9,588 nt of DNA from a virus (Duplodnaviria; Heunggongvirae; Uroviricota; Caudoviricetes): IMG/VR virus record IMGVR_UViG_2690316346_000013; one strand, written 5' to 3'. The notes under the pieces were generated by a model. It ran no database searches. It saw nothing but the letters and a program-made list of their open reading frames with translations, and had not been told where the DNA came from. Made by a program: the position numbers and the translations under genes. Below are positions 433 to 8,966 of the stretch, in pieces; position 1 is the first letter of the stretch; each line of letters begins with the position of its first letter.

Positions 433-768
433 ATGAAGTGGATTGTGATTGATACAGTTATCCAGCCATCATGCGGAATATCTTTTTCAGTCATATGGAG
501 TAAAATAAAATTAATAATCTGGTATCAATCGGATGCTTTCTTACCTCCTGAAAGTATATTTACACTGACTCACACAGGCATCATGCTCAATAACAAAGTG
601 CTACCTGTAACCATTTACAACGTAGTACCATTCAATAAAACATTCTGGAATTCAATCAAAAATAGCCAGGAATGCCCTACAAATACAGATAACGTATTGA
701 ATGAATGCTTTAATAACCGTTGCACTCTGCAAATATGTCCTTATGGACTAAAACAACAAAGTCCATAA
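433..768 (+). CDS. Hypothetical 111-aa protein, Cys-containing C-terminal region, no family recognised
   Basis: ORF-track ORF with a good RBS (AAGGAA about 6 nt before the ATG). It follows a long AT-rich intergenic region and is followed by a perfect 8-bp GC hairpin. Codon usage is AT-rich, with 6 AUA codons by my count. Duplicated at 6371..6706. Confidence 0.5.
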
Positions 769-800
769 GGAGTTTACTCACATCTGACAAAATCAATATA

Positions 801-1025
801 AACAGCCCCTCCGGAGAGGGGCTGGAGAGTGGCGCTATGTGCCATTGCATGGTGCCGGGTGCCTCCCGGTGAATTCAGTACCAGCACCTGAATCCGCGAT
901 TATCCCATATACCTACTCGCTGATTGCCCCTCCGCACAGGGGGATTCACCATGCCAGTTTCTTTTAACAAACTCCCCGCAAACCAGACAACAGTCAACCG
1001 CCTGAATTGTGAAGTATTTAAAAAT
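801..1025. repeat. Hairpin-dense ~225-bp element, copy A (also 3497..3718 and 6739..6963)
   Basis: Four consecutive GC-rich stem-loops: 804..823 (agcccctc-cgga-gaggggct, perfect 8-bp stem), 855..869, 873..893 and 927..942, in otherwise AT-rich DNA. The copy at 3497..3718 differs by a handful of substitutions and a 1-nt deletion in the first stem, and has different flanks on both sides. Confidence 0.6.
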
Positions 1026-1048: not shown

Positions 1049-1135
1049 CTAACAGTCTGGCGTTTTCTTTTTCAGCAACGGGAAAGCAACAACCACCACA
1101 CCCGCCACCAGCACACCGTCAGCCAGCACTGACAT
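1049..1135 (-). CDS. Candidate small hydrophobic peptide (28 aa, MSVLADGVLVAGVVVVAFPLLKKKTPDC)
   Basis: Found by manual translation; it is below the ORF-track size cutoff. One predicted transmembrane-like helix followed by KKK. The SD is weak. An in-frame GTG upstream would give a 44-aa product. Duplicated at 6987..7073. Confidence 0.25.
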   Translation of the reverse strand: MSVLADGVLVAGVVVVAFPLLKKKTPDC

Positions 1136-1215: not shown

Positions 1216-1569
1216 CTACCCCAGATGAGTAATCCGAAGTTCATCCATACCACAGGTCCTGGCTATTCTGTTGTACTCCTGAACAAGAGCAAATAATTCT
1301 GAATTAGCAACCATGAACTCATCGCAAACCCTCTGTATAGCATCACTATTCAGAATAATAACGTCTCTTCCCGAAAGACGATCAGGAGTACAGAACAAAA
1401 CTGTCAAACGGCTGAAGGCCTTTGCTCGTGCTGCATTGACTATATCAATACGCTGCCTAAGGATGAAACACCCCGACGCCTCATCAATATTCACTCTACC
1501 CACACCATATGAATGATAAATATTTAATGCTGAAAAAACCATTAGACCGTATAACAAACACTCAATCAA
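1216..1569 (-). CDS. Hypothetical 117-aa protein, TTG start (internal ATG at codon 10 possible)
   Basis: ORF-track ORF whose translation looks protein-like (…[33 protein letters not shown]…). It is rich in rare Arg/Ile codons (AGA, AGG, AUA). Duplicated at 7154..7507. Start codon is uncertain. Confidence 0.4.
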
Positions 1570-1772
1570 TACTTAACAGAACTTTTATTAGTGCCAACTA
1601 TAAAGTGCTAGAATATTTTATCAATAATGGATTGGTTGATGTAAACAAAAAATTTCAAAAAGCAAATAGTGGGGACACTATGCTTGACAATGCAATGAAA
1701 AGCAAAGATTCAAAAATGATTGATTTTTTATTAAAAAATGGAGCAATATTAGGCAAACGATTTGAGATATGA
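1509..1772 (+). CDS. Ankyrin-repeat ORF fragment (87 aa), probably truncated or chimeric
   Basis: The translation contains ankyrin-like repeats: ...[22 protein letters not shown]... and [28 protein letters not shown] (G-x-T-x-L-x-x-A...LL-x-x-GA pattern). Only the first 81 nt lie inside the duplicated block; the repeats are encoded in unique DNA at 1590..1772. The start overlaps the 117-aa ORF on the opposite strand. Confidence 0.4.
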
Positions 1773-2109
1773 CCTAAAAGCTCGGCCAAATAATAATGTC
1801 GTCGATTATCGAAGTCATCATGAGTGATTCTGTCCCCACAGTGCAGCATCAGCATGACAGTGAATTGTCTGGCGTGGTCCATTTAATGAGATGGAGATGG
1901 TCCCTCTTTCCTAAATAGCTGTGCCTAATACCGCTACACTTTTGCCAGCCCATGTTTGCCTCCGGGGAATGGGCTGACGGTTCCTTCAAAATCCATTGCA
2001 CGCAGTTATGTCGGAGCGGGAACTTGACTCCCGTCTTTACGGGAGTGAGGTAGCCTGAGTTTAACGGACACTCCTTCCTGAAATAGAATGGCATCAGAAG
2101 GAGCCAATA

Positions 2110-2412
2110 ATGAGCAGAAAAACCCAACGTTACTCTACGGAGTTTAAAGCCGAAGCCGTCAAAACGGTTCCTGAAAATCAGCTTTCGATCAGTGAAGGCG
2201 CTTCCCGATTATCTCTTCCTGAAGGCACTTTAGGACAATGGGTTACCGCCGCAAGAAAAGGGCTCAATACACCAGGCTCCCGCACAGTGGCTGAGCTGGA
2301 ATCTGAAGTTATGCAACTGCGTAAGGCTTTAAATGAAGCACGACTTGAGCGAGATATATTAAAAAAAGCAACAGCGTATTTTGCACAGGAGTCGCTGAAA
2401 AATACGCGTTAA
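2110..2412 (+). CDS. IS600 transposase OrfA (HTH DNA-binding part), 100 aa
   Basis: RBS GAAGGAG before the ATG. N-terminal HTH followed by a leucine-zipper-like region, typical of IS3-family OrfA. Ends just after the A7G frameshift motif. Confidence 0.85.
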   Translation: MSRKTQRYSTEFKAEAVKTVPENQLSISEGASRLSLPEGTLGQWVTAARKGLNTPGSRTVAELESEVMQLRKALNEARLERDILKKATAYFAQESLKNTR

Positions 2413-2447
2413 TCGAACAATGGCGACAACAATTTCCCATTGAAGCG

Positions 2448-3266
2448 ATGTGTCAGGTATTTGGTGTATCCAGGAGCGGTTATTACAACTGGGTACAGCA
2501 TGAACCCTCAGACAGAAAACAAAGTGATGAGCGGCTAAAACTGGAGATTAAGGTGGCACATATCCGCACTCGCGAAACATATGGAACCCGGCGGCTCCAG
2601 ACGGAGCTGGCAGAGAATGGCATCATCGTTGGTCGTGACCGACTGGCACGTCTTCGTAAGGAGCTAAGGCTACGCTGTAAGCAGAAACGCAAGTTCAGAG
2701 CGACTACGAACTCGAACCACAATCTGCCAGTTGCGCCAAATCTGCTGAACCAGACGTTCGCTCCTACAGCACCAAATCAGGTCTGGGTGGCGGACCTGAC
2801 GTATGTTGCCACACAGGAGGGATGGTTGTACCTCGCTGGCATCAAAGATGTTTATACGTGCGAAATTGTCGGCTACGCCATGGGAGAGCGCATGACAAAA
2901 GAGCTGACAGGTAAAGCCCTGTTTATGGCGCTCAGGAGCCAGCGCCCACCTGCCGGGCTAATCCACCACTCTGATCGAGGTTCACAGTACTGCGCATACG
3001 ATTACCGGGTCATACAGGAGCAGTCTGGTCTGAAAACATCAATGTCGCGTAAAGGTAACTGTTACGACAACGCTCCGATGGAAAGCTTCTGGGGAACGCT
3101 GAAAAATGAGAGCCTGAGCCACTATCGTTTTAATAACCGGGATGAAGCCATCTCAGTAATACGGGAATACATTGAGATTTTCTACAATCGTCAGCGTCGT
3201 CACTCTCGTCTGGGGAATATCTCCCCGGCAGCCTTCAGGGAAAAATATCATCAGATGGCTGCTTAA
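2448..3266 (+). CDS. IS600 transposase OrfB (DDE catalytic domain), 272 aa as annotated; normally expressed as an OrfAB fusion by -1 frameshifting
   Basis: The orfB frame is open upstream to the A7G site at 2361..2368. The protein looks like an rve-type integrase core (…WVADLTYV… HHSDRGSQY… CYDNAPMESFWGTLK…). Confidence 0.85.
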   Translation: MCQVFGVSRSGYYNWVQHEPSDRKQSDERLKLEIKVAHIRTRETYGTRRLQTELAENGIIVGRDRLARLRKELRLRCKQKRKFRATTNSNHNLPVAPNLLNQTFAPTAPNQVWVADLTYVATQEGWLYLAGIKDVYTCEIVGYAMGERMTKELTGKALFMALRSQRPPAGLIHHSDRGSQYCAYDYRVIQEQSGLKTSMSRKGNCYDNAPMESFWGTLKNESLSHYRFNNRDEAISVIREYIEIFYNRQRRHSRLGNISPAAFREKYHQMAA

Positions 3267-3496
3267 AAAAAGAACAAATGGTAGTGTCCGCTATTGCCAG
3301 TACACCTCAGGATAGCGGTCATGTGATGCCGGTTTCCCGGTAACTCAGCACCGGTATCTGAGTCAACGTTTTCTCTACTGGGTCATTTCCGATACGCCCT
3401 GCCTGCTGACAGGCTTTCATCACATCTGAAAATATAGCACCCTGACTGATACTGTAGTACCTAAGGTTCCAGAAACTGTGATGTATCCGGCACAGA

Positions 3497-3718
3497 AAAG
3501 CCCCTCCGGAGAGGGCTGGAGAGTGGCGCTATGTGCCATTGCATGATGCCGGGTGCCTCCCGGTGAATTCAGTACCAGCACCTGAATCCGCGATTATCCC
3601 ATATACCTACTCGCTGATTGCCCCTCCGCACAGGGGGATTCACCATGCCAGTTTCTTTTAACAAACTCCCCGCAAAACAGACAACTGTCAACCGTCTGAA
3701 TTGTGAGACATTTAAAAA
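3497..3718. repeat. Hairpin-dense ~222-bp element, copy C (diverged copy of 801..1025)
   Basis: Alignable with 801..1025 across its whole length. Differences include gagaggggct to gagagggct, catggtg to catgatg, aaaccagacaacagtc to aaaacagacaactgtc, and gaagta to gagaca. It abuts the tRNA operon terminator. Confidence 0.6.
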
Positions 3719-3739
3719 AAAGGCCCGCAAAAGCGAGCC
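3714..3739 (-). terminator. Rho-independent terminator of the tRNA cluster (minus strand)
   Basis: On the minus strand: a 7-bp stem (ggcucgc / gcgggcc, one G.U pair) with a 4-nt loop, followed by a run of 8 U, starting 14 nt past the tRNA-Arg 3' end. Absent from the second tRNA copy. Confidence 0.55.
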
Positions 3740-3753
3740 AGGGAAAATAAGTG

Positions 3754-3830
3754 TGGCGCGTTGTACTGGATTCGAACCAGTGACCGATTGCTTAGAAGGC
3801 AATTGCTCTGTCCGGCTGAGCTAACAACGC
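3754..3830 (-). tRNA. tRNA-Arg (anticodon UCU), phage-type
   Basis: Manual cloverleaf, 77 nt: acceptor GCGTTGT/ACAACGC, D-arm GCTC...GAGC, anticodon arm ATTGC-CTTCTAA-GCAAT, T-arm ACTGG-TTCGAAT-CCAGT, then G-CCA. Confidence 0.8.
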
Positions 3831-3843
3831 ATGATGCAGATAA

Positions 3844-3920
3844 TGGACCGCCATCGGGGACTTGAACCCCGCGCAGCCAGCTTCGAAGGCTGGCGCTCTT
3901 TCCTGATGAGCTAATGGCGG
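3844..3920 (-). tRNA. tRNA-Arg (anticodon UCG), phage-type
   Basis: Manual cloverleaf, 77 nt: acceptor CCGCCAT/ATGGCGG (unusual C1-G72), D-arm GCTC...GAGC, anticodon arm CCAGC-CTTCGAA-GCTGG, T-arm CGGGG-TTCAAGT-CCCCG, then T-CCA. Confidence 0.7.
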
Positions 3921-3927
3921 TATGTGA

Positions 3928-4003
3928 TGGTGGCCCTTGCTGGATTTGAACCAGCGACCTGGCGATTATGAGTCGCTCGCTCTCACCACTGAGCTAAAGG
4001 GCC
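3928..4003 (-). tRNA. tRNA-Ile2-like (anticodon CAU, ileX/ileZ type, probably lysidine-modified to read AUA); tRNA-Met not excluded
   Basis: 76 nt. Strongly resembles E. coli ileX as I recall it (GGCCC.TTAGCTCAGTGGT.AGAGC..GCGACTCATAATCGC..GGTCGCTGGTTCAA.TCCAGCA.GGGCCACCA). Anticodon loop is CTCATAA. Confidence 0.8.
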
Positions 4004-4043
4004 GGGAGCCGCATAATAACGACGCGTAATTAATTCTTCAATA

Positions 4044-4844
4044 TCATCCGTTCTGGCTGACTAAATCCTGTACTTCCCGAACCGTCTGCTCAAAACGTTC
4101 AGTCTCCAGCTCAACGCCAATTGCACGACGCCCGAGCGCCAGTGCCGCTTTCACTGTCGAACCCAACCCCATGAAAAAATCTGCAATCAGGTCACCCGGA
4201 CGACTGCTAGCGCTGATTATCTGCTGCAGCATTTCTGCCGGTTTTTCGCACGGATGTTTCCCGGGATAGAACTGCACCGGTTTATGCGTCCACACATCGG
4301 TATACGGCACCTGCACCGTCACGCCAAAATACCGCCGCAGATGTTTATATTCACTCAGCAGCTCCGCATACTGCCGGTTCAGTGAGGTATACGTATCCAC
4401 CAGCTGGTGGTGGAGCTTTTCCAGTTCACCACGCCGATGCTTCTCTTCTGCCACCCGGGCAAACAGCGCCTGTAATTTCAGATAATCGCTTTCATTCGGC
4501 AACTGCCACTGACCGGCACTGAACCAGTGCGACACCATGTTTTTCTTTCCTGTGGCATCTGCAATCTGTTTTGCCGTTATCCCCAGGGCAGCTCGCGCAT
4601 CACGAAAGTAAGAAATCAGCGGGGCCATCACATGCTGTTTCAGTGCACTGCCCTTCGCCGCATACCCGGCATCTTTCGGACGATACGGCCCCTGATAATG
4701 TTCCGCGAACAGAATGCGCTCTGTGGCGGGGAAATACGCCCGCAGGCTTTCCTTGTTGCATCCGTTCCAGCGTCCGGACGGCTTCGCCCAGATAATATGG
4801 TTCAGCACACTGAAGCGTTCACGCATCATGATTTCGATATCAGA
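4044..4844 (-). pseudogene. 5'-truncated copy of the DNA methyltransferase (N-terminal ~87 codons including the DPPY motif replaced by IS600)
   Basis: Matches codons ~88..352 of the intact gene at 7908..8966. Homology stops at 4844, one base before IS600-derived sequence. No start codon or catalytic motif IV remains. Confidence 0.75.
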
Positions 4845-4845
4845 A

Positions 4846-5983
4846 TGAAAATCAACTTTCGATCAGTGAAGGCGCTTCCCGATTATCTCTTCCTGAAGGC
4901 ACTTTAGGACAATGGGTTACCGCCGCCAGAAAAGGGCTCGGTACTCCTGGTTCCCGCACGGTGGCTGAACTGGAATCTGAAATTCTGCAACTGCGTAAGG
5001 CGTTAAATGAAGCTCGCCTTGAGCGAGATATATTAAAAAAAGCAACAGCGTATTTTGCACAGGAGTCGCTGAAAAATACGCGTTAATCGAACAATGGCGA
5101 CAACAATTTCCCATTGAAGCGATGTGTCAGGTATTTGGTGTATCCAGGAGCGGTTATTACAACTGGGTACAGCATGAACCCTCAGACAGAAAACAAAGTG
5201 ATGAGCGGCTAAAACTGGAGATTAAGGTGGCACATATCCGCACTCGCGAAACATATGGAACCCGGCGGCTCCAGACGGAGCTGGCAGAGAATGGCATCAT
5301 CGTTGGTCGTGACCGACTGGCACGTCTTCGTAAGGAGCTAAGGCTACGCTGTAAGCAGAAACGCAAGTTCAGAGCGACTACGAACTCGAACCACAATCTG
5401 CCAGTTGCGCCAAATCTGCTGAACCAGACGTTCGCTCCTACAGCACCAAATCAGGTCTGGGTGGCGGACCTGACGTATGTTGCCACACAGGAGGGATGGT
5501 TGTACCTCGCTGGCATCAAAGATGTTTATACGTGCGAAATTGTCGGCTACGCCATGGGAGAGCGCATGACAAAAGAGCTGACAGGTAAAGCCCTGTTTAT
5601 GGCGCTCAGGAGCCAGCGCCCACCTGCCGGGCTAATCCACCACTCTGATCGAGGTTCACAGTACTGCGCATACGATTACCGGGTCATACAGGAGCAGTCT
5701 GGTCTGAAAACATCAATGTCGCGTAAAGGTAACTGTTACGACAACGCTCCGATGGAAAGCTTCTGGGGAACGCTGAAAAATGAGAGCCTGAGCCACTATC
5801 GTTTTAATAACCGGGATGAAGCCATCTCAGTAATACGGGAATACATTGAGATTTTCTACAATCGTCAGCGTCGTCACTCTCGTCTGGGGAATATCTCCCC
5901 GGCAGCCTTCAGGGAAAAATATCATCAGATGGCTGCTTAAAAAAAGAACAAATGGTAGTGTCCGCTATTGCCAGTACACCTCA
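4846..5983 (+). mobile_element. 5'-truncated IS600 (equivalent to positions ~127..1264; left inverted repeat and orfA start missing)
   Basis: From ~5030 to the end it is identical to the full copy. The first ~180 bp (4846..~5030) differ at about 14 positions from the full copy and encode the OrfA variant ...GLGTPGSRTVAELESEILQ..., i.e. a mosaic of two IS600 isoforms. Confidence 0.8.
5122..5940 (+). CDS. IS600 transposase OrfB (second copy), 272 aa; the upstream orfA is only a start-less fragment (4846..5086)
   Basis: Protein identical to the orfB product at 2448..3266. Confidence 0.8.
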   Translation: MCQVFGVSRSGYYNWVQHEPSDRKQSDERLKLEIKVAHIRTRETYGTRRLQTELAENGIIVGRDRLARLRKELRLRCKQKRKFRATTNSNHNLPVAPNLLNQTFAPTAPNQVWVADLTYVATQEGWLYLAGIKDVYTCEIVGYAMGERMTKELTGKALFMALRSQRPPAGLIHHSDRGSQYCAYDYRVIQEQSGLKTSMSRKGNCYDNAPMESFWGTLKNESLSHYRFNNRDEAISVIREYIEIFYNRQRRHSRLGNISPAAFREKYHQMAA

Positions 5984-6110
5984 GGGTATAAGGGGTTATG
6001 GCCACCGGACTACCAAACGGCTGCCAGCCCTCTTTCAGTTTATGTGTCAGCTTTTCCGCAAGATCTGACGGCGGCGCCGCCCTGACAACATCATAGTGTT
6101 TAAATGCCAT
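5937..6110 (-). CDS. Small hypothetical protein (MAFKHYDVVRAAPPSDLAEKLTHKLKEGWQPFGSPVAITPYTL...), 3' end fused to IS600 end sequence
   Basis: ATG at 6110..6108 with an upstream GGTGGAAAG tract; an alternative upstream ATG is at 6125. Native sequence ends at the IS600 boundary (5983/5984); the last ~14 codons are IS-derived. Confidence 0.3.
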   Translation of the reverse strand: MAFKHYDVVRAAPPSDLAEKLTHKLKEGWQPFGSPVAITPYTLRCTGNSGHYHLFFF

Positions 6111-6370
6111 GGTTCTTTCCACCATCTGAAAAATAATTCTTTAAAATACCTGACATGTAATACAGAAAAAACACAAAACCATACCTTAAATAAAAACCTG
6201 ATTATCAAGCAGATATGCATGGATAAACTACAAGACGAGATATAAACCACCCTGCATTTAAATAAACAATAAACAACATCAGAAAAATAATTCTGCTCTA
6301 TGGTTTACATTCAAAAATATCATTTATACTTTTCAGAACATCACCAGCAAGGCATAAACAAGGAAACTAA

Positions 6371-6706
6371 ATGAAGTGGATTGTGATTGATACAGTTATC
6401 CAGCCATCATGCGGAATATCTTTTTCAGTCATATGGAGTAAAATAAAATTAATAATCTGGTATCAATCGGATGCTTTCTTACCTCCTGAAAGTATATTTA
6501 CACTGACTCACACAGGCATCATGCTCAATAACAAAGTGCTACCTGTAACCATTTACAACGTAGTACCATTCAATAAAACATTCTGGAATTCAATCAAAAA
6601 TAGCCAGGAATGCCCTACAAATACAGATAACGTATTGAATGAATGCTTTAATAACCGTTGCACTCTGCAAATATGTCCTTATGGACTAAAACAACAAAGT
6701 CCATAA
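6371..6706 (+). CDS. Hypothetical 111-aa protein (duplicate of 433..768)
   Basis: Sequence identical to 433..768, with the same RBS and the same downstream hairpin. Confidence 0.5.
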
Positions 6707-6738
6707 GGAGTTTACTCACATCTGACAAAATCAATATA

Positions 6739-6963
6739 AACAGCCCCTCCGGAGAGGGGCTGGAGAGTGGCGCTATGTGCCATTGCATGGTGCCGGGTGC
6801 CTCCCGGTGAATTCAGTACCAGCACCTGAATCCGCGATTATCCCATATACCTACTCGCTGATTGCCCCTCCGCACAGGGGGATTCACCATGCCAGTTTCT
6901 TTTAACAAACTCCCCGCAAACCAGACAACAGTCAACCGCCTGAATTGTGAAGTATTTAAAAAT
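6739..6963. repeat. Hairpin-dense ~225-bp element, copy A' (identical to 801..1025)
   Basis: Lies inside the 1,589-bp duplication. Confidence 0.6.
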
Positions 6964-6986
6964 TTCTCCCGCTAACTGATACCCGG

Positions 6987-7073
6987 CTAACAGTCTGGCG
7001 TTTTCTTTTTCAGCAACGGGAAAGCAACAACCACCACACCCGCCACCAGCACACCGTCAGCCAGCACTGACAT
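6987..7073 (-). CDS. Candidate small hydrophobic peptide (duplicate of 1049..1135)
   Basis: Identical sequence. Confidence 0.25.
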   Translation of the reverse strand: MSVLADGVLVAGVVVVAFPLLKKKTPDC

Positions 7074-7153
7074 TATCCGGCTGCTGCAATGCCATTCACA
7101 AAAACAGTAAGCAATCACTTTTTACCGTAACAGGTGATAATCCAGATATGTAT

Positions 7154-7507
7154 CTACCCCAGATGAGTAATCCGAAGTTCATCCATACCACAGGTCCTGG
7201 CTATTCTGTTGTACTCCTGAACAAGAGCAAATAATTCTGAATTAGCAACCATGAACTCATCGCAAACCCTCTGTATAGCATCACTATTCAGAATAATAAC
7301 GTCTCTTCCCGAAAGACGATCAGGAGTACAGAACAAAACTGTCAAACGGCTGAAGGCCTTTGCTCGTGCTGCATTGACTATATCAATACGCTGCCTAAGG
7401 ATGAAACACCCCGACGCCTCATCAATATTCACTCTACCCACACCATATGAATGATAAATATTTAATGCTGAAAAAACCATTAGACCGTATAACAAACACT
7501 CAATCAA
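7154..7507 (-). CDS. Hypothetical 117-aa protein (duplicate of 1216..1569)
   Basis: Identical sequence. Here it lies about 110 bp downstream of the tRNA cluster on the same strand, with no terminator between them. Confidence 0.4.
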   Translation of the reverse strand: MIECLLYGLMVFSALNIYHSYGVGRVNIDEASGCFILRQRIDIVNAARAKAFSRLTVLFCTPDRLSGRDVIILNSDAIQRVCDEFMVANSELFALVQEYNRIARTCGMDELRITHLG

Positions 7508-7617
7508 TACTTAACAGAACTTTTATTTTTGACAAACATAAAATATTTTCAACAATATCCTGAGCCAGGTATATTTCAGTATAAGGCTCTGCCGGAAGGA
7601 ATCTGGAAGAATGAATA

Positions 7618-7694
7618 TGGCGCGCTGTACTGGATTCGAACCAGTGACCGATTGCTTAGAAGGCAATTGCTCTGTCCGGCTGAGCTAACAACGC
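7618..7694 (-). tRNA. tRNA-Arg (anticodon UCU), second copy with U4.G69 in the acceptor stem
   Basis: Same as 3754..3830 except for c at 7625 (t at 3761), which turns the U4-A69 pair into a U.G wobble. Confidence 0.75.
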
Positions 7695-7707
7695 ATGATG
7701 CAGATAA

Positions 7708-7784
7708 TGGACCGCCATCGGGGACTTGAACCCCGCGCAGCCAGCTTCGAAGGCTGGCGCTCTTTCCTGATGAGCTAATGGCGG
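7708..7784 (-). tRNA. tRNA-Arg (anticodon UCG), second copy
   Basis: Identical to 3844..3920. Confidence 0.7.
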
Positions 7785-7791
7785 TATGTGA

Positions 7792-7867
7792 TGGTGGCCC
7801 TTGCTGGATTTGAACCAGCGACCTGGCGATTATGAGTCGCTCGCTCTCACCACTGAGCTAAAGGGCC
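7792..7867 (-). tRNA. tRNA-Ile2-like (anticodon CAU), second copy
   Basis: Identical to 3928..4003. Confidence 0.8.
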
Positions 7868-7907
7868 GGGAGCCGCATAATAACGACGCGTAATTAATTC
7901 TTCAATA

Positions 7908-8966
7908 TCATCCGTTCTGGCTGACTAAATCCTGTACTTCCCGAACCGTCTGCTCAAAACGTTCAGTCTCCAGCTCAACGCCAATTGCACGACGCCCGAG
8001 CGCCAGTGCCGCTTTCACTGTCGAACCCAACCCCATGAAAAAATCTGCAATCAGGTCACCCGGACGACTGCTAGCGCTGATTATCTGCTGCAGCATTTCT
8101 GCCGGTTTTTCGCACGGATGTTTCCCGGGATAGAACTGCACCGGTTTATGCGTCCACACATCGGTATACGGCACCTGCACCGTCACGCCAAAATACCGCC
8201 GCAGATGTTTATATTCACTCAGCAGCTCCGCATACTGCCGGTTCAGTGAGGTATACGTATCCACCAGCTGGTGGTGGAGCTTTTCCAGTTCACCACGCCG
8301 ATGCTTCTCTTCTGCCACCCGGGCAAACAGCGCCTGTAATTTCAGATAATCGCTTTCATTCGGCAACTGCCACTGACCGGCACTGAACCAGTGCGACACC
8401 ATGTTTTTCTTTCCTGTGGCATCTGCAATCTGTTTTGCCGTTATCCCCAGGGCAGCTCGCGCATCACGAAAGTAAGAAATCAGCGGGGCCATCACATGCT
8501 GTTTCAGTGCACTGCCCTTCGCCGCATACCCGGCATCTTTCGGACGATACGGCCCCTGATAATGTTCCGCGAACAGAATGCGCTCTGTGGCGGGGAAATA
8601 CGCCCGCAGGCTTTCCTTGTTGCATCCGTTCCAGCGTCCGGACGGCTTCGCCCAGATAATATGGTTCAGCACACTGAAGCGTTCACGCATCATGATTTCG
8701 ATATCAGATGCCAGGCGATGACCACAGAACAGGTAAAGACTTCCGGCAGGTTTCAGCACCCGCCAGAACTGCGCCAGACACTGGTCCAGCCACTTCAGGT
8801 AATCATCGTCGCCCTTCCACTGGTTATCCCAGCCCTCAGGCTTCACTTTAAAGTACGGCGGGTCCGTGACTATCAGGTCAACAGAATTTTCGGGTAACGA
8901 CCGGATAAATTCCAGGCAGTCGGCGTTGATTAACTCACAACTGGATATTTTTACAGTATTAAGCAT
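7908..8966 (-). CDS. Beta-class amino-DNA methyltransferase (N6-adenine or N4-cytosine), 352 aa, phage-type orphan
   Basis: Motif IV DPPY (…DLIVTDPPYF…) near the N-terminus and motif I FxGxG (…DFFMGLGSTV…) near the C-terminus, which is the beta-class order. No adjacent restriction endonuclease candidate. Sits immediately upstream of the tRNA triplet on the same strand. Confidence 0.85.
   Translation of the reverse strand: MLNTVKISSCELINADCLEFIRSLPENSVDLIVTDPPYFKVKPEGWDNQWKGDDDYLKWLDQCLAQFWRVLKPAGSLYLFCGHRLASDIEIMMRERFSVLNHIIWAKPSGRWNGCNKESLRAYFPATERILFAEHYQGPYRPKDAGYAAKGSALKQHVMAPLISYFRDARAALGITAKQIADATGKKNMVSHWFSAGQWQLPNESDYLKLQALFARVAEEKHRRGELEKLHHQLVDTYTSLNRQYAELLSEYKHLRRYFGVTVQVPYTDVWTHKPVQFYPGKHPCEKPAEMLQQIISASSRPGDLIADFFMGLGSTVKAALALGRRAIGVELETERFEQTVREVQDLVSQNG

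Follow-up and report, generated by a model that had tools for sequence, protein, structure and literature searches.

The hairpin-rich element that recurs three times in the window, a 9,588-nucleotide stretch of Caudoviricetes DNA analysed here in full, represents three copies of a catalogued, already known prophage sRNA gene, STnc100/EcOnc05, and we consider it very probable that every copy forms a self-contained STnc100-family gene with its own promoter, for which we propose Hfq-linked base pairing in trans. The Rfam model RF02076 (STnc100; gathering score 47 bits) matched all three copies on the minus strand and over its full length (model positions 1-206), with copy A at 794..983 (132.4 bits, E 1e-29), its identical duplicate, copy B, at 6732..6921 (132.4 bits), and copy C, which carries two private changes, at 3488..3677 (123.6 bits). 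While the initial annotation could place the element in no known repeat family, it is thus RF02076 STnc100, described as EcOnc05 by Tree et al. 2014, and the preference voiced there for a discrete structured RNA or sRNA gene over a protein proved correct given the Rfam match and the covariation reported below. Compared with the RF02076 model, the variant in the window shares helices, terminator, strand logic and prophage location, whereas its variable P3 region is shorter by ~16 nt. Other Rfam families gave only sub-threshold noise (snoZ266, P26, Trp_leader, and Plastid-ycf2 antisense to a tRNA), and a tRNA- or tmRNA-like element was rejected as ARAGORN and the Rfam tRNA model called six neighbouring tRNA genes, none of them inside the element.

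Experimental evidence comes from close relatives. The EcOnc05 Northern probe listed in the supplement of Tree et al. 2014 (PMC4104026) has an exact plus-strand match in each copy (891-925, 3585-3619 and 6829-6863), the EcOnc06 probe matches the element with 1 mismatch, and in alignment the Sp4 locus of E. coli O157:H7 Sakai and copy A do not differ anywhere between the -35 box and the end of the terminator. In Sakai, EcOnc05 has an Hfq-CRAC peak and a Northern band of ~222 nt, and EcOnc06 a band of ~177 nt (PMC4104026), while in EDL933 11 STnc100 copies are transcribed and one is Northern-positive (PMC5331693). EcOnc05 (Sp4) lies after ileZ-argN-argO in the same position as copy C; the host genome and flanks of EcOnc05 and EcOnc06 (Sp17) nonetheless differ from those in the window, and the Sakai elements have a convergent antisense partner (EcOnc08; AgvB for EcOnc06) where copies A and B face iraM instead. 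The element is widespread, being found in 2,860 of 5,426 complete E. coli genomes with a maximum of 12 copies per genome, and STnc100 is among the sRNA families most often annotated in enterobacterial genomes (PMC9029176).

Self-repeat comparison recovered the three copies first reported from the sequence (819-1037 equals 6757-6975 at 100% and 3513-3731 at 94%), and alignment with a 1-nt deletion allowed placed the repeat module of ~225 bp at ~804-1027 (A), 3498-3721 (C) and 6742-6965 (B), in agreement with the initial coordinates. The flanks had been described as different, which holds for copy C only: those of A and B are identical, as both copies lie within an exact 1,589-bp duplication (1-1589 = 5939-7527), so that A and B are one locus copied with its flanks rather than separate insertions. 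IS3-family insertion sequences adjoin this duplication. The window holds a complete IS3-family element of 1,264 bp (2046..3309, plus strand; HTH_Tnp_1 and rve ORFs), which truncates the copy-C array, and self-comparison identified further IS3-family copies, one as a right end only (1-45) and one 5'-truncated (4846-5983). The window also contains an ospC4 fragment, which together with the IS load hints tentatively at Shigella or EIEC, and in the collections searched no complete E. coli genome or plasmid covers 80% or more of the window. The three copies would derive from one IS-associated 1.6-kb duplication (A = B) and a second prophage late-region fragment (C). GC content is 0.565 at 801-1000 against 0.28-0.36 in the left flank and ~0.46 in the right, such that the AT-rich surroundings noted earlier apply mainly to the left side.

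Copy C is slightly degraded. Its private changes in the alignment are a C>U in the 3' strand of helix P1, converting a G-C pair to G·U, and a 1-nt deletion in the 5' arm of the terminator; the harm to pairing that the initial annotation attributed to this deletion is real and falls on the sRNA's own terminator, where a 9-bp stem becomes a bulged stem. Because of these two mutations, the minimum free energy (MFE) structure of copy C leaves the family structure for a non-family fold (z = -1.4). Copy C is followed in tandem by a degenerate second STnc100-like unit (3312..3449, minus strand; 21.8 bits, E 0.22) whose 3' end was removed by the IS, and whose intact equivalent in E. coli ATCC 11775 (30.1 bits) is flanked by two strong units. 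Tandem arrays are a form in which the STnc100 family occurs.

The element folds as a single multi-helix RNA. Four GC-rich hairpins had been described, and all four exist (the terminator, P5, P4 and P2), though a fifth helix, P1 (GCAUGGUG/CACCAUGC in copy A), was missed, and it is P1 that closes the hairpins into one junction. In the resulting five-way-junction core (847..954 in copy A, 6785-6892 in copy B and 3541-3648 in copy C, all minus strand), P1 encloses P2 (CCCCU/AGGGG in copy A), a variable P3, P4 (GGAUUCAG/CUGAAUUC) and P5 (CCGGG/CCCGG). For the 162-nt transcript of copy A the MFE structure equals the centroid, and both contain the STnc100 helices CCCCU/AGGGG, GGNUUCAG-type and CCGGG-AGGCA-CCCGG together with the closing helix. 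Over 101 homologues, 66.5% of cells were paired versus 41-48% in slid controls, and the covariation score was 0.167 versus 0.105 for shuffled alignments (0/500). The initial annotation had proposed covariation as the check on its structured-RNA reading, and that reading passes: compensatory changes were found in P1, P2, the base of P3 and P4 among ~100 homologues from many Enterobacteriaceae (P1, GC 80 / AU 13; P2, CG 87 / GC 10; P4, for example GC 36 / AU 34), and RNAalifold on 56 diverse cores independently recovered P1, P2, the base of P3 and P5. Our homologue search pattern fixed P5 and part of P1, and the invariance of these parts is uninformative. We dropped the outer helix of RF02076 (5' GGGGAGU plus linker), in which 49% of cells were paired, no better than slid controls.

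These alignments also speak to strand. The functional strand is the minus strand, opposite to the one on which the initial annotation had read the element, and it is favoured by the Rfam matches, U-tail, promoter orientation, G·U asymmetry and EcOnc05 probe. In minus-strand sense, P4 in the homologue alignment has 113 G·U cells versus 22 A·C cells, an asymmetry that favours the minus strand; the sole core substitution in copy C is the G-C to G·U change on that strand; a terminator U-tail is found on the minus strand only; and, because the antisense EcOnc05 Northern probe corresponds to the plus strand, the functional RNA is read from the minus strand. Selection acting on the DNA itself, in which the element would serve lambdoid phages as a recombination or mosaic-joint module and the hairpins would be incidental, would fit the unrelated flanks of A and C, the Sp4 locus with its A-type body and C-type upstream flank, and the occurrence of tandem arrays. 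However, the compensatory changes and strand-specific G·U excess, the oriented promoter and terminator, and the transcripts detected from identical sequence (PMC4104026) make it highly improbable, and the DNA repeat or recombination site offered as an alternative in the initial annotation is not needed.

The element occupies a late-region "moron" slot of a lambdoid prophage on the minus strand. This slot has the order Q, DNA methylase, tRNA Ile/Arg/Arg, (DUF3927), sRNA, and esterase or holin, and loci of identical DNA run RusA, antiterminator, methylase, tRNAs, (DUF3927), element, esterase, holin, lysozyme; in the window itself methylase, tRNAs and element are all on the minus strand, and in 12 of 87 loci the nearest downstream ORF encodes a holin. 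Upstream of copy C, ARAGORN called a phage tRNA trio with CAT/TCG/TCT anticodons (3754..4003, minus strand; ileZ-argN-argO type, annotated ileZ1/argN1/argO1 in Sakai Sp4), with a second set at 7618-7867. The tRNA-cluster terminator (GGCTCGCTTTTGCGGGCC followed by T8; 3722..3739, minus strand) lies directly upstream of copy C in the RNA sense, where the initial annotation had located it. Copies A and B are instead directly preceded, as are PasD1 and PasD2, by a gene for a 28-aa DUF3927 micro-protein (1049..1135, minus strand, Pfam PF13064, E 7e-16; duplicate 6987-7073) that copy C lacks. The convergent feature is an iraM-like gene for A and B (433..768, plus strand, annotated "anti-adapter protein IraM" by RefSeq on identical DNA; duplicate 6371-6706), and for copy C the degenerate second unit followed by the IS.

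Several sRNAs share this slot. PasD1 and PasD2 (EPEC E2348/69, homologues of EcOnc13; Pearl Mizrahi 2021), which were verified by Northern blot and RIL-seq (PMC8550237), are syntenic, diverged relatives of the window element: they share its gene order (Q, hypothetical gene, DUF3927, sRNA, esterase or holin), its P1, P2, P4, P5 architecture and its 3' terminator, PasD scores 37.7 bits against the STnc100 model, and a preprint by Zhu, Shabalina and Storz (2026) assigns PasD and STnc100 a shared ancestry. PasD differs in having a U8 tail and a longer linker (~45 nt), and of the two variants only PasD has known targets. We did not find the PasD seed UGUGAG within CCUUGUGAGUUCUGGCUGCGCAUG anywhere in the window, even when allowing 3 mismatches, and with both the PasD probe and seed absent we rejected the element as a PasD allele; it is a relative. 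EcOnc27/sRNA103, found downstream of stx2B in Stx2 phages, likewise matches the STnc100 model, sits in the same moron slot and is Hfq-bound, but is only ~70-77% identical to the window element and is stx2-linked, while the window is without a toxin gene. Phage-database matches to the window element were mostly Stx phages. AsxR and AgvB (RF02703 / RF02702) occupy the same prophage slot and form convergent pairs with STnc100-type sRNAs, yet are 51-60 nt long, on the opposite strand and unrelated in sequence; no match to either as a convergent partner was found within the window at E<=1.

The ~225-bp repeat is a promoter-to-terminator cassette made up of sigma-70-like boxes, the core, a short unpaired linker and an intrinsic terminator. 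Read from sequence, the predicted sigma-70 promoter of copy A spans 961..997 (minus strand), with TTGTCT (990-985) or TTGACT (997-992) as candidate -35 and a TGn-extended TAAAAG (966-961) as candidate -10, for a predicted start at ~G955/G954; an alternative promoter, TTGACT-17-GAGTTT (-10 at 974-969), would start at ~962. The equivalent boxes lie at 6899-6935 in copy B, and copy C has a -35 TTGACA at 3691-3686. In 24 homologues, TTGAC lies 36-37 nt before the core and a -10 box ends 7 nt before it; RNA-seq places the 5' end of PasD1 at the equivalent G, 7 nt past the -10 box of TTGACT-N18-TAAAAA; and RpoD ChIP-exo signal has been reported at Salmonella STnc100 promoters (PMC10794520). The promoter inside the repeat would therefore, by these parallels, start the RNA at or a few nt before P1, near G955/954. 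The RF02076 model begins 29 nt upstream of this predicted 5' end, and its first 29 positions are probably promoter DNA and not RNA.

We also weighed whether the RNA has no promoter of its own and is processed from the tRNA-cluster trailer (copy C, Sp4 type) or from a Q-dependent late transcript. Copy C begins 30 nt past the tRNA terminator, the ~222 nt of EcOnc05 equal the distance from the tRNA-terminator U-tract to the sRNA terminator, and the -10 candidates here (TAAAAG or GAGTTT) are weak, all of which would fit such an origin. Yet the same boxes are present in A and B, which lie ~540 bp from the tRNAs and behind DUF3927, the homology of A and C extends ~30 nt beyond the -35 box on its upstream side, where the edge of a promoter-to-terminator cassette would be expected, and the TTGAC and -10 spacing fixed in many homologues, the PasD1 5' end and the RpoD binding reported at the Salmonella copies all point to a dedicated promoter, and we hold processing as the sole origin to be unlikely. 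The ~222-nt EcOnc05 band exceeds the 160-170 nt predicted for the transcript. Taken with a model start 29 nt upstream, this band suggests that longer read-through or tRNA-trailer species may exist, and for the ~222-nt species of the Sp4 locus the processed 3' region of the tRNA transcript offered in the initial annotation may hold.

That the element encodes a small protein, whether through the plus-strand 28-codon ORF, the RefSeq plus-strand pseudogene or a minus-strand 25-codon ORF with its AUG in P1, is scarcely credible. PGAP does annotate a partial hypothetical CDS across the element, and ribosome footprints occur on some STnc100 copies of EDL933 (RCV up to 3.2; PMC5331693). Against this, the 28-codon ORF reported initially exists (951-1037) and lies antisense to the promoter and RNA 5' end, but it lacks a Pfam match and its C-terminal part in copy C is read from unrelated sequence, for which two reasons we rejected it as a protein; the P1 AUG is GUG or missing in most homologues; indels in the variable P3 are not multiples of three; and the conservation pattern is that of a paired RNA. 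The RefSeq "hypothetical protein" pseudogene on the plus strand is spurious.

Downstream of the core, copy A has a linker between P1 and the terminator (825..846, minus strand; AAUGGCACAUAGCGCCACUCUCC) that corresponds in position to the PasD seed UGUGAG and is variable in sequence across the family, and which we infer to be the seed and Hfq-contact region. A same-strand Rho-independent terminator follows (794..824), with a 9-bp stem in the terminator scan (stem-loop 824-803, CAGCCCCUC UCCG GAGGGGCUG) and a U-rich tail (UUUAUAUUG); it is duplicated in B (6741-6762) and weakened in C (3517-3499). Across the family, a canonical terminator lies 20-40 nt past the core in 60 of 113 members versus 9 of 113 shuffles. 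Next to those of typical Hfq sRNAs and of PasD (U8), copies A and B have a poor U-tail (UGUUUAUAUU). The most likely mechanism is that of a trans-acting, Hfq-associated base-pairing sRNA: an RNA of ~160-170 nt, ending at a predicted ~797, would fold into the five-way junction supported by covariation, whose core is almost invariant across Enterobacteriaceae, followed by the variable, mostly unpaired linker and then the terminator. In a lysogen it would associate with Hfq, as crosslinking has shown for the identical Sakai sequence, and would most likely pair in trans through the linker or 3' region, with RIL-seq of the relative PasD as guide. Read-through of terminators by Q-modified polymerase is established lambdoid biology, and during lytic growth such polymerase would pass the terminator.

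An alternative, which we consider decidedly unlikely, is that the invariant junction core is the functional part, as a protein- or ligand-binding domain or as a cis leader or attenuator of the downstream genes (nanS-p esterase or holin in prophages, the kdgM porin in chromosomes), with tail pairing secondary. Loops and junction residues of the core (UGGUGAAUCCCCCU..GCGG..GGGGC) are >90% identical across genera where the search selected for the P5/P1 3' motif only, and among 19 kdgM-linked loci on chromosomes, conservation exceeds 90% in the core and is 10-50% in both flanks. Same-strand genes begin shortly after the terminator (PasD2 precedes the SASA esterase by 87 nt), the next ORF is a holin or KdgM in 22 of 87 loci, and PasD abundance is independent of Hfq, with levels that do not fall in a delta-hfq strain (PMC8550237). 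A cis role, however, sits poorly with other observations. In this variant the P2 and terminator arms are near-duplicates that can swap, as in the copy C MFE, but a conserved terminator/antiterminator alternative was not found across the family, whose terminator arms vary freely: terminator sequences in other members are unrelated and absent in about half, the canonical form being absent in 53 of 113. The kdgM group has ~130 nt of unconserved sequence between core and gene, copies A and B are followed by a gene, iraM, that is read from the other strand, and PasD has its RIL-seq seed in the tail and many trans partners. A mere sRNA scaffold would not normally be so nearly invariant, which hints at an added function of the core.

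The finding adds little that is new, as the element is real but ordinary; the work settles its strand, its boundaries and the promoter-to-terminator nature of the unit, and records both the tandem arrays of the family and its conserved chromosomal kdgM-linked branch. A statistical link to clinical outcome has been described for STnc100-type variants located downstream of stx2 (PMC12711010), and the conserved core is a reasonable target for experiments. This core is common to prophage "moron" sRNAs and to a chromosomal locus that precedes a kdgM-porin/pectate-lyase operon in Klebsiella, Enterobacter, Kosakonia and Citrobacter, and our literature search for a link between kdgM and an sRNA yielded nothing relevant. 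We put forward as a tentative and rather doubtful idea that the core specifically binds a small molecule or a conserved protein of the host or the phage, and that only the variable 3' tail diversifies as a seed. If true, the family would consist of modular "sensor or sponge plus seed" RNAs, and the Rfam entry would unite phage members with core-genome members that differ in their outputs.

Scanning the window against all Rfam families, one of the checks proposed in the initial annotation, assigned all three copies of the hairpin-dense module (copies A, B and C) to the STnc100 sRNA family (RF02076), on the minus strand and over the whole model, at 132.4, 132.4 and 123.6 bits, far over the family's gathering score of 47 bits. 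Among the orphan sRNAs that Tree et al. 2014 (PMC4104026) list as crosslinked to Hfq in E. coli O157:H7 Sakai are EcOnc05 from prophage Sp4, with a Northern band of ~222 nt, and EcOnc06 from Sp17, with a Northern band of ~177 nt. The EcOnc05 Northern probe has exact plus-strand matches at 891-925, 3585-3619 and 6829-6863 (the EcOnc06 probe matches with one mismatch) and, since probes are complementary to the RNA they detect, the RNA is transcribed from the minus strand. The Sakai Sp4 locus does not differ from copy A anywhere between the -35 box and the terminator stem, both included, such that crosslinking to Hfq and a discrete band have already been demonstrated in Sakai for an identical sequence, and its upstream context is that of copy C (the argO tRNA, then its terminator). 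Identical or near-identical DNA is found in 2,860 of 5,426 complete E. coli genomes (median 2 places per genome, maximum 12), as well as in 285 phage records at 69-99% identity, mostly Stx-converting phages. The element is thus a known family, and even a known sequence.

The existence and positions of the three copies were borne out, as a repeat search of the window recovered a ~225-bp module at 819-1037, repeated at 6757-6975 with 100% identity and at 3513-3731 with 94% identity, and a three-way alignment including the homologous Sakai locus gave essentially the limits stated initially (~804-1027 in copy A for the block common to the copies). The module has a GC content of 56.5%, with 28-36% in the left flank and ~46% in the right. 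The four hairpins described initially are real, and a fifth helix joins them into one closed junction. The initial annotation also held that the copies have different flanks, which is true of copy C but not of copies A and B: positions 1-1589 match 5939-7527 base for base, so these two copies represent a single locus whose duplication took in 1.6 kb of surrounding DNA (iraM, the element, the DUF3927 gene and more). Each duplicate segment is immediately preceded by the right end of an IS3-family element of 1,264 bp, which we take to be IS600-like, with copies at 1-45, 2046-3309 and 4846-5983, the last being 5'-truncated and fused to a truncated DNA-methylase gene (4044-4845; the full methylase gene is at 7908-8966). 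The tRNA and methylase block also occurs twice (3741-4845 versus 7605-8709, 7 mismatches over 1,105 positions). The window is a patchwork, and its organization suggests IS-mediated duplication or recombination between two prophage late regions; among the complete E. coli genomes and plasmids searched, none had this arrangement. Between the duplicate end and the IS, 455 bp (1591-2045) are 99.9% identical to the ospC4 3' end and IS junction of EIEC/Shigella pINV plasmids, and an 87-aa ORF (1509-1772, plus strand) aligns with the C-terminal end of Pfam Shigella_OspC (E 1e-28), placing an invasion-plasmid effector gene fragment within a prophage late region and hinting at Shigella or EIEC as the source.

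Read along the minus strand, copy A has candidate -35 boxes at 997-992 (TTGACT; TTGACA in copy C) and 990-985 (TTGTCT), which allow two alternative pairings with candidate -10 boxes at 966-961 (a TGn-extended TAAAAG) and 974-969 (GAGTTT), with the start predicted at ~G955/954 or ~962. The five-way-junction core (954-847) comprises P1 (GCAUGGUG/CACCAUGC), P2 (CCCCU-GUGCGG-AGGGG), a variable P3, P4 (GGAUUCAG/CUGAAUUC) and P5 (CCGGG-AGGCA-CCCGG), and is followed by a 22-nt linker (846-825) and a terminator (824-803) with a 9-bp stem and the tail UUUAUAUUG. For a transcript from G955, the minimum-energy and centroid folds both equal the family structure. The P2 hairpin (926-943, CCCCCUGUGCGGAGGGGC) and the terminator hairpin (803-824, CCCCUCUCCGGAGGGGC) are near-duplicates whose arms can swap in this E. 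coli variant, a near-duplication not kept in other genera.

Homologues were gathered via a 22-nt P5/P1 motif scan with one genome per species, yielding 110 stretches from Escherichia, Shigella, Enterobacter, Klebsiella, Kosakonia, Citrobacter, Raoultella, Trabulsiella, Buttiauxella, Pantoea, Erwinia and other genera; because P5 and part of P1 are fixed by this motif, their invariance is uninformative in either direction. Across 101 of these sequences with mutual identity below 93%, the copy A structure had 66.5% of cells paired versus 41-48% with slid partners, and a covariation score of 0.167 versus 0.105 when shuffled, with none of 500 shuffles attaining the observed value. Compensatory changes were seen in P1 (G-C 80 / A-U 13; U-A 52 / C-G 10), in P2 (C-G 87 / G-C 10) and throughout P4 (e.g., G-C 36 / A-U 34 / G-U 10), such that the structured-RNA reading, for which their absence had been named as the refutation, holds. 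RNAalifold, run on 56 diverse cores with no input structure, found P1, P2, the base of P3, and P5. Strand is likewise visible in the pairing, with P4 containing 113 G·U cells versus 22 A·C cells (73.6% paired sense, 61.9% antisense), and the one substitution that separates copies A and C within the core is a G-C to G·U change in the minus-strand RNA; on the plus strand it would give an A·C mismatch. Of 113 members, 60 have a canonical terminator 3' of the core, usually at a distance of 20-40 nt, compared with 9 of 113 shuffles and 16 of 113 on the antisense strand. The covariation, the G·U asymmetry, the oriented signals and the lack of a coding signature leave a DNA-level repeat or a small protein disfavoured. 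In RefSeq/PGAP, a plus-strand "incomplete hypothetical protein" pseudogene is drawn over the sRNA gene, with no ncRNA feature (6140-6265 in homologous locus L001, equal to window 839-964, and 5224-5349 in L112, from E. coli ATCC 11775); it is probably an annotation artefact recurring in thousands of genomes.

The predicted start is supported by PasD1, an EPEC relative whose RNA-seq-estimated 5' end (NC_011601 1060260; PMC8550237 supplement) maps to the equivalent G within GCAUGGUGAAUCC, 7 nt past TTGACT-N18-TAAAAA. An exact TTGAC lies 36-37 nt ahead of the core in 24 homologues, and a -10 box ending 7 nt before the core is the commonest position (19 of the 39 homologues with best promoter-like scores). 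The outer helix formed by the Rfam model's first positions had 49% of cells paired, no better than controls, with no covariation. From the PasD1 5' end, the fixed spacing and this unsupported helix, we infer that the first ~29 model positions (window 955-983; 1731-1760 in locus L113) are promoter DNA rather than RNA; the model's 5' end would cover the -10 box and spacer, its conserved UUAaAAaAaU equalling TAAAAA(T), with the PasD1 5' end just 3' of it. The sRNA would then be driven by its own sigma-70 promoter, as supported by an RpoD ChIP-exo signal reported at Salmonella STnc100 promoters (PMC10794520), to give a predicted transcript of ~160-170 nt, though the ~222-nt EcOnc05 band indicates that longer species may exist. 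For the arrangement shared by Sp4 and copy C, it is possible that the RNA is instead processed from the tRNA or late transcript, which would account for the 222-nt band, whereas copies A and B retain the promoter boxes in another context.

In the native context of copy C, as seen in an E. coli ATCC 11775 prophage, the post-tRNA unit is the first of three tandem STnc100-type units (136, 30 and 161 bits; L112 4691-5368), head-to-tail between the tRNAs and holin; in Enterobacter quasiroggenkampii (L022 3539 and 3759), two core motifs lie 220 nt apart. In the window this array is interrupted within its degenerate second unit (3312-3449, minus strand, 21.8 bits) by the complete IS3-family element (2046-3309). 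Relative to ATCC 11775 and Sakai, copy C has two private changes, a C>U in the P1 3' strand and one C missing from the terminator 5' arm, and its predicted minimum-energy fold pairs the P2 arms with the terminator arms (z-score down to -1.4), unlike that of copy A, which keeps the family structure. Given these changes and the predicted fold switch, copy C looks like a decaying copy.

Genomes with identical DNA share a late-strand order of RusA, antiterminator, a small ORF, DNA methylase, tRNA-Ile(CAT), two tRNA-Arg, (DUF3927) and the element, followed by a SASA (NanS-p-type) esterase, holin, lysozyme and Rz. The element sits 3' of the Q-dependent late promoter, in the position known as the "moron" slot, and during lytic growth Q-modified polymerase would read through its terminator. 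Toxin genes fill the same slot in Stx phages. Hfq-binding sRNAs occupy it in at least eight Sakai prophages (Tree et al.). The CAT-anticodon tRNA (3928-4003 and 7792-7867) is "Met" by ARAGORN and tRNA-Ile (ileZ; lysidine-modified CAU) in the RefSeq and Sakai annotations, and the phage tRNA trio ileZ-argN-argO normally begins with ileZ. Directly upstream of copies A and B is a 28-aa DUF3927 ORF (1049-1135 and 6987-7073, minus strand) with a promoter-like site at 1163-1134; the version at PasD loci is 52 aa, and the window ORF, matching only the C-terminal half of the domain (profile positions 26-53), may be truncated. Convergent with the sRNA gene is a prophage-borne iraM-like gene (433-768 and 6371-6706, plus strand), named in RefSeq for an anti-adaptor shielding RpoS from degradation and without a Pfam match. 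Its stop codon lies ~30 nt from the sRNA terminator with no plus-strand U-tract there, so the iraM transcript could enter the sRNA gene antisense.

Like copies A and B, PasD1 and PasD2 come next after a DUF3927 gene, in exactly the same position, and they score 37.7 bits against the STnc100 model, in agreement with a 2026 preprint (Zhu, Shabalina and Storz) that concludes to a common ancestry of PasD and STnc100. Identity of the window element with PasD itself was rejected, as the PasD seed and probe sequence are not in the window. Among relatives, EcOnc27/sRNA103 overexpression is reported to affect fimZ and espA, and relatives have been found in outer-membrane vesicles and statistically associated with HUS. 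PasD RIL-seq targets share CUCACA, complementary to UGUGAG in PasD's equivalent linker (PMC8550237), and by this analogy the window sRNA would act in trans by base pairing through its variable linker or 3' region. A core-centred or cis-acting function is unlikely, even though the core is conserved far beyond the needs of an sRNA scaffold and PasD levels are independent of Hfq (PMC8550237). It would also suit a chromosomal, non-prophage STnc100 branch (77.9 bits; L006 786-995 and 18 similar loci, e.g., L017, L020, L034, L063, L068, L073 and L096) in Kosakonia, Klebsiella, Enterobacter, Citrobacter and Raoultella, in which a KdgM-family porin gene follows after ~190 nt, then a periplasmic pectate lyase, and in which the core is >90% conserved while the flanks are not and the canonical terminator is mostly absent. 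Against it, no conserved terminator/antiterminator switch was found across the family, about half of members are without a canonical terminator, and the core-to-kdgM spacer is unconserved; our literature search found no kdgM-sRNA link. What still deserves attention is the unexplained core invariance, together with the chromosomal relatives linked to kdgM.
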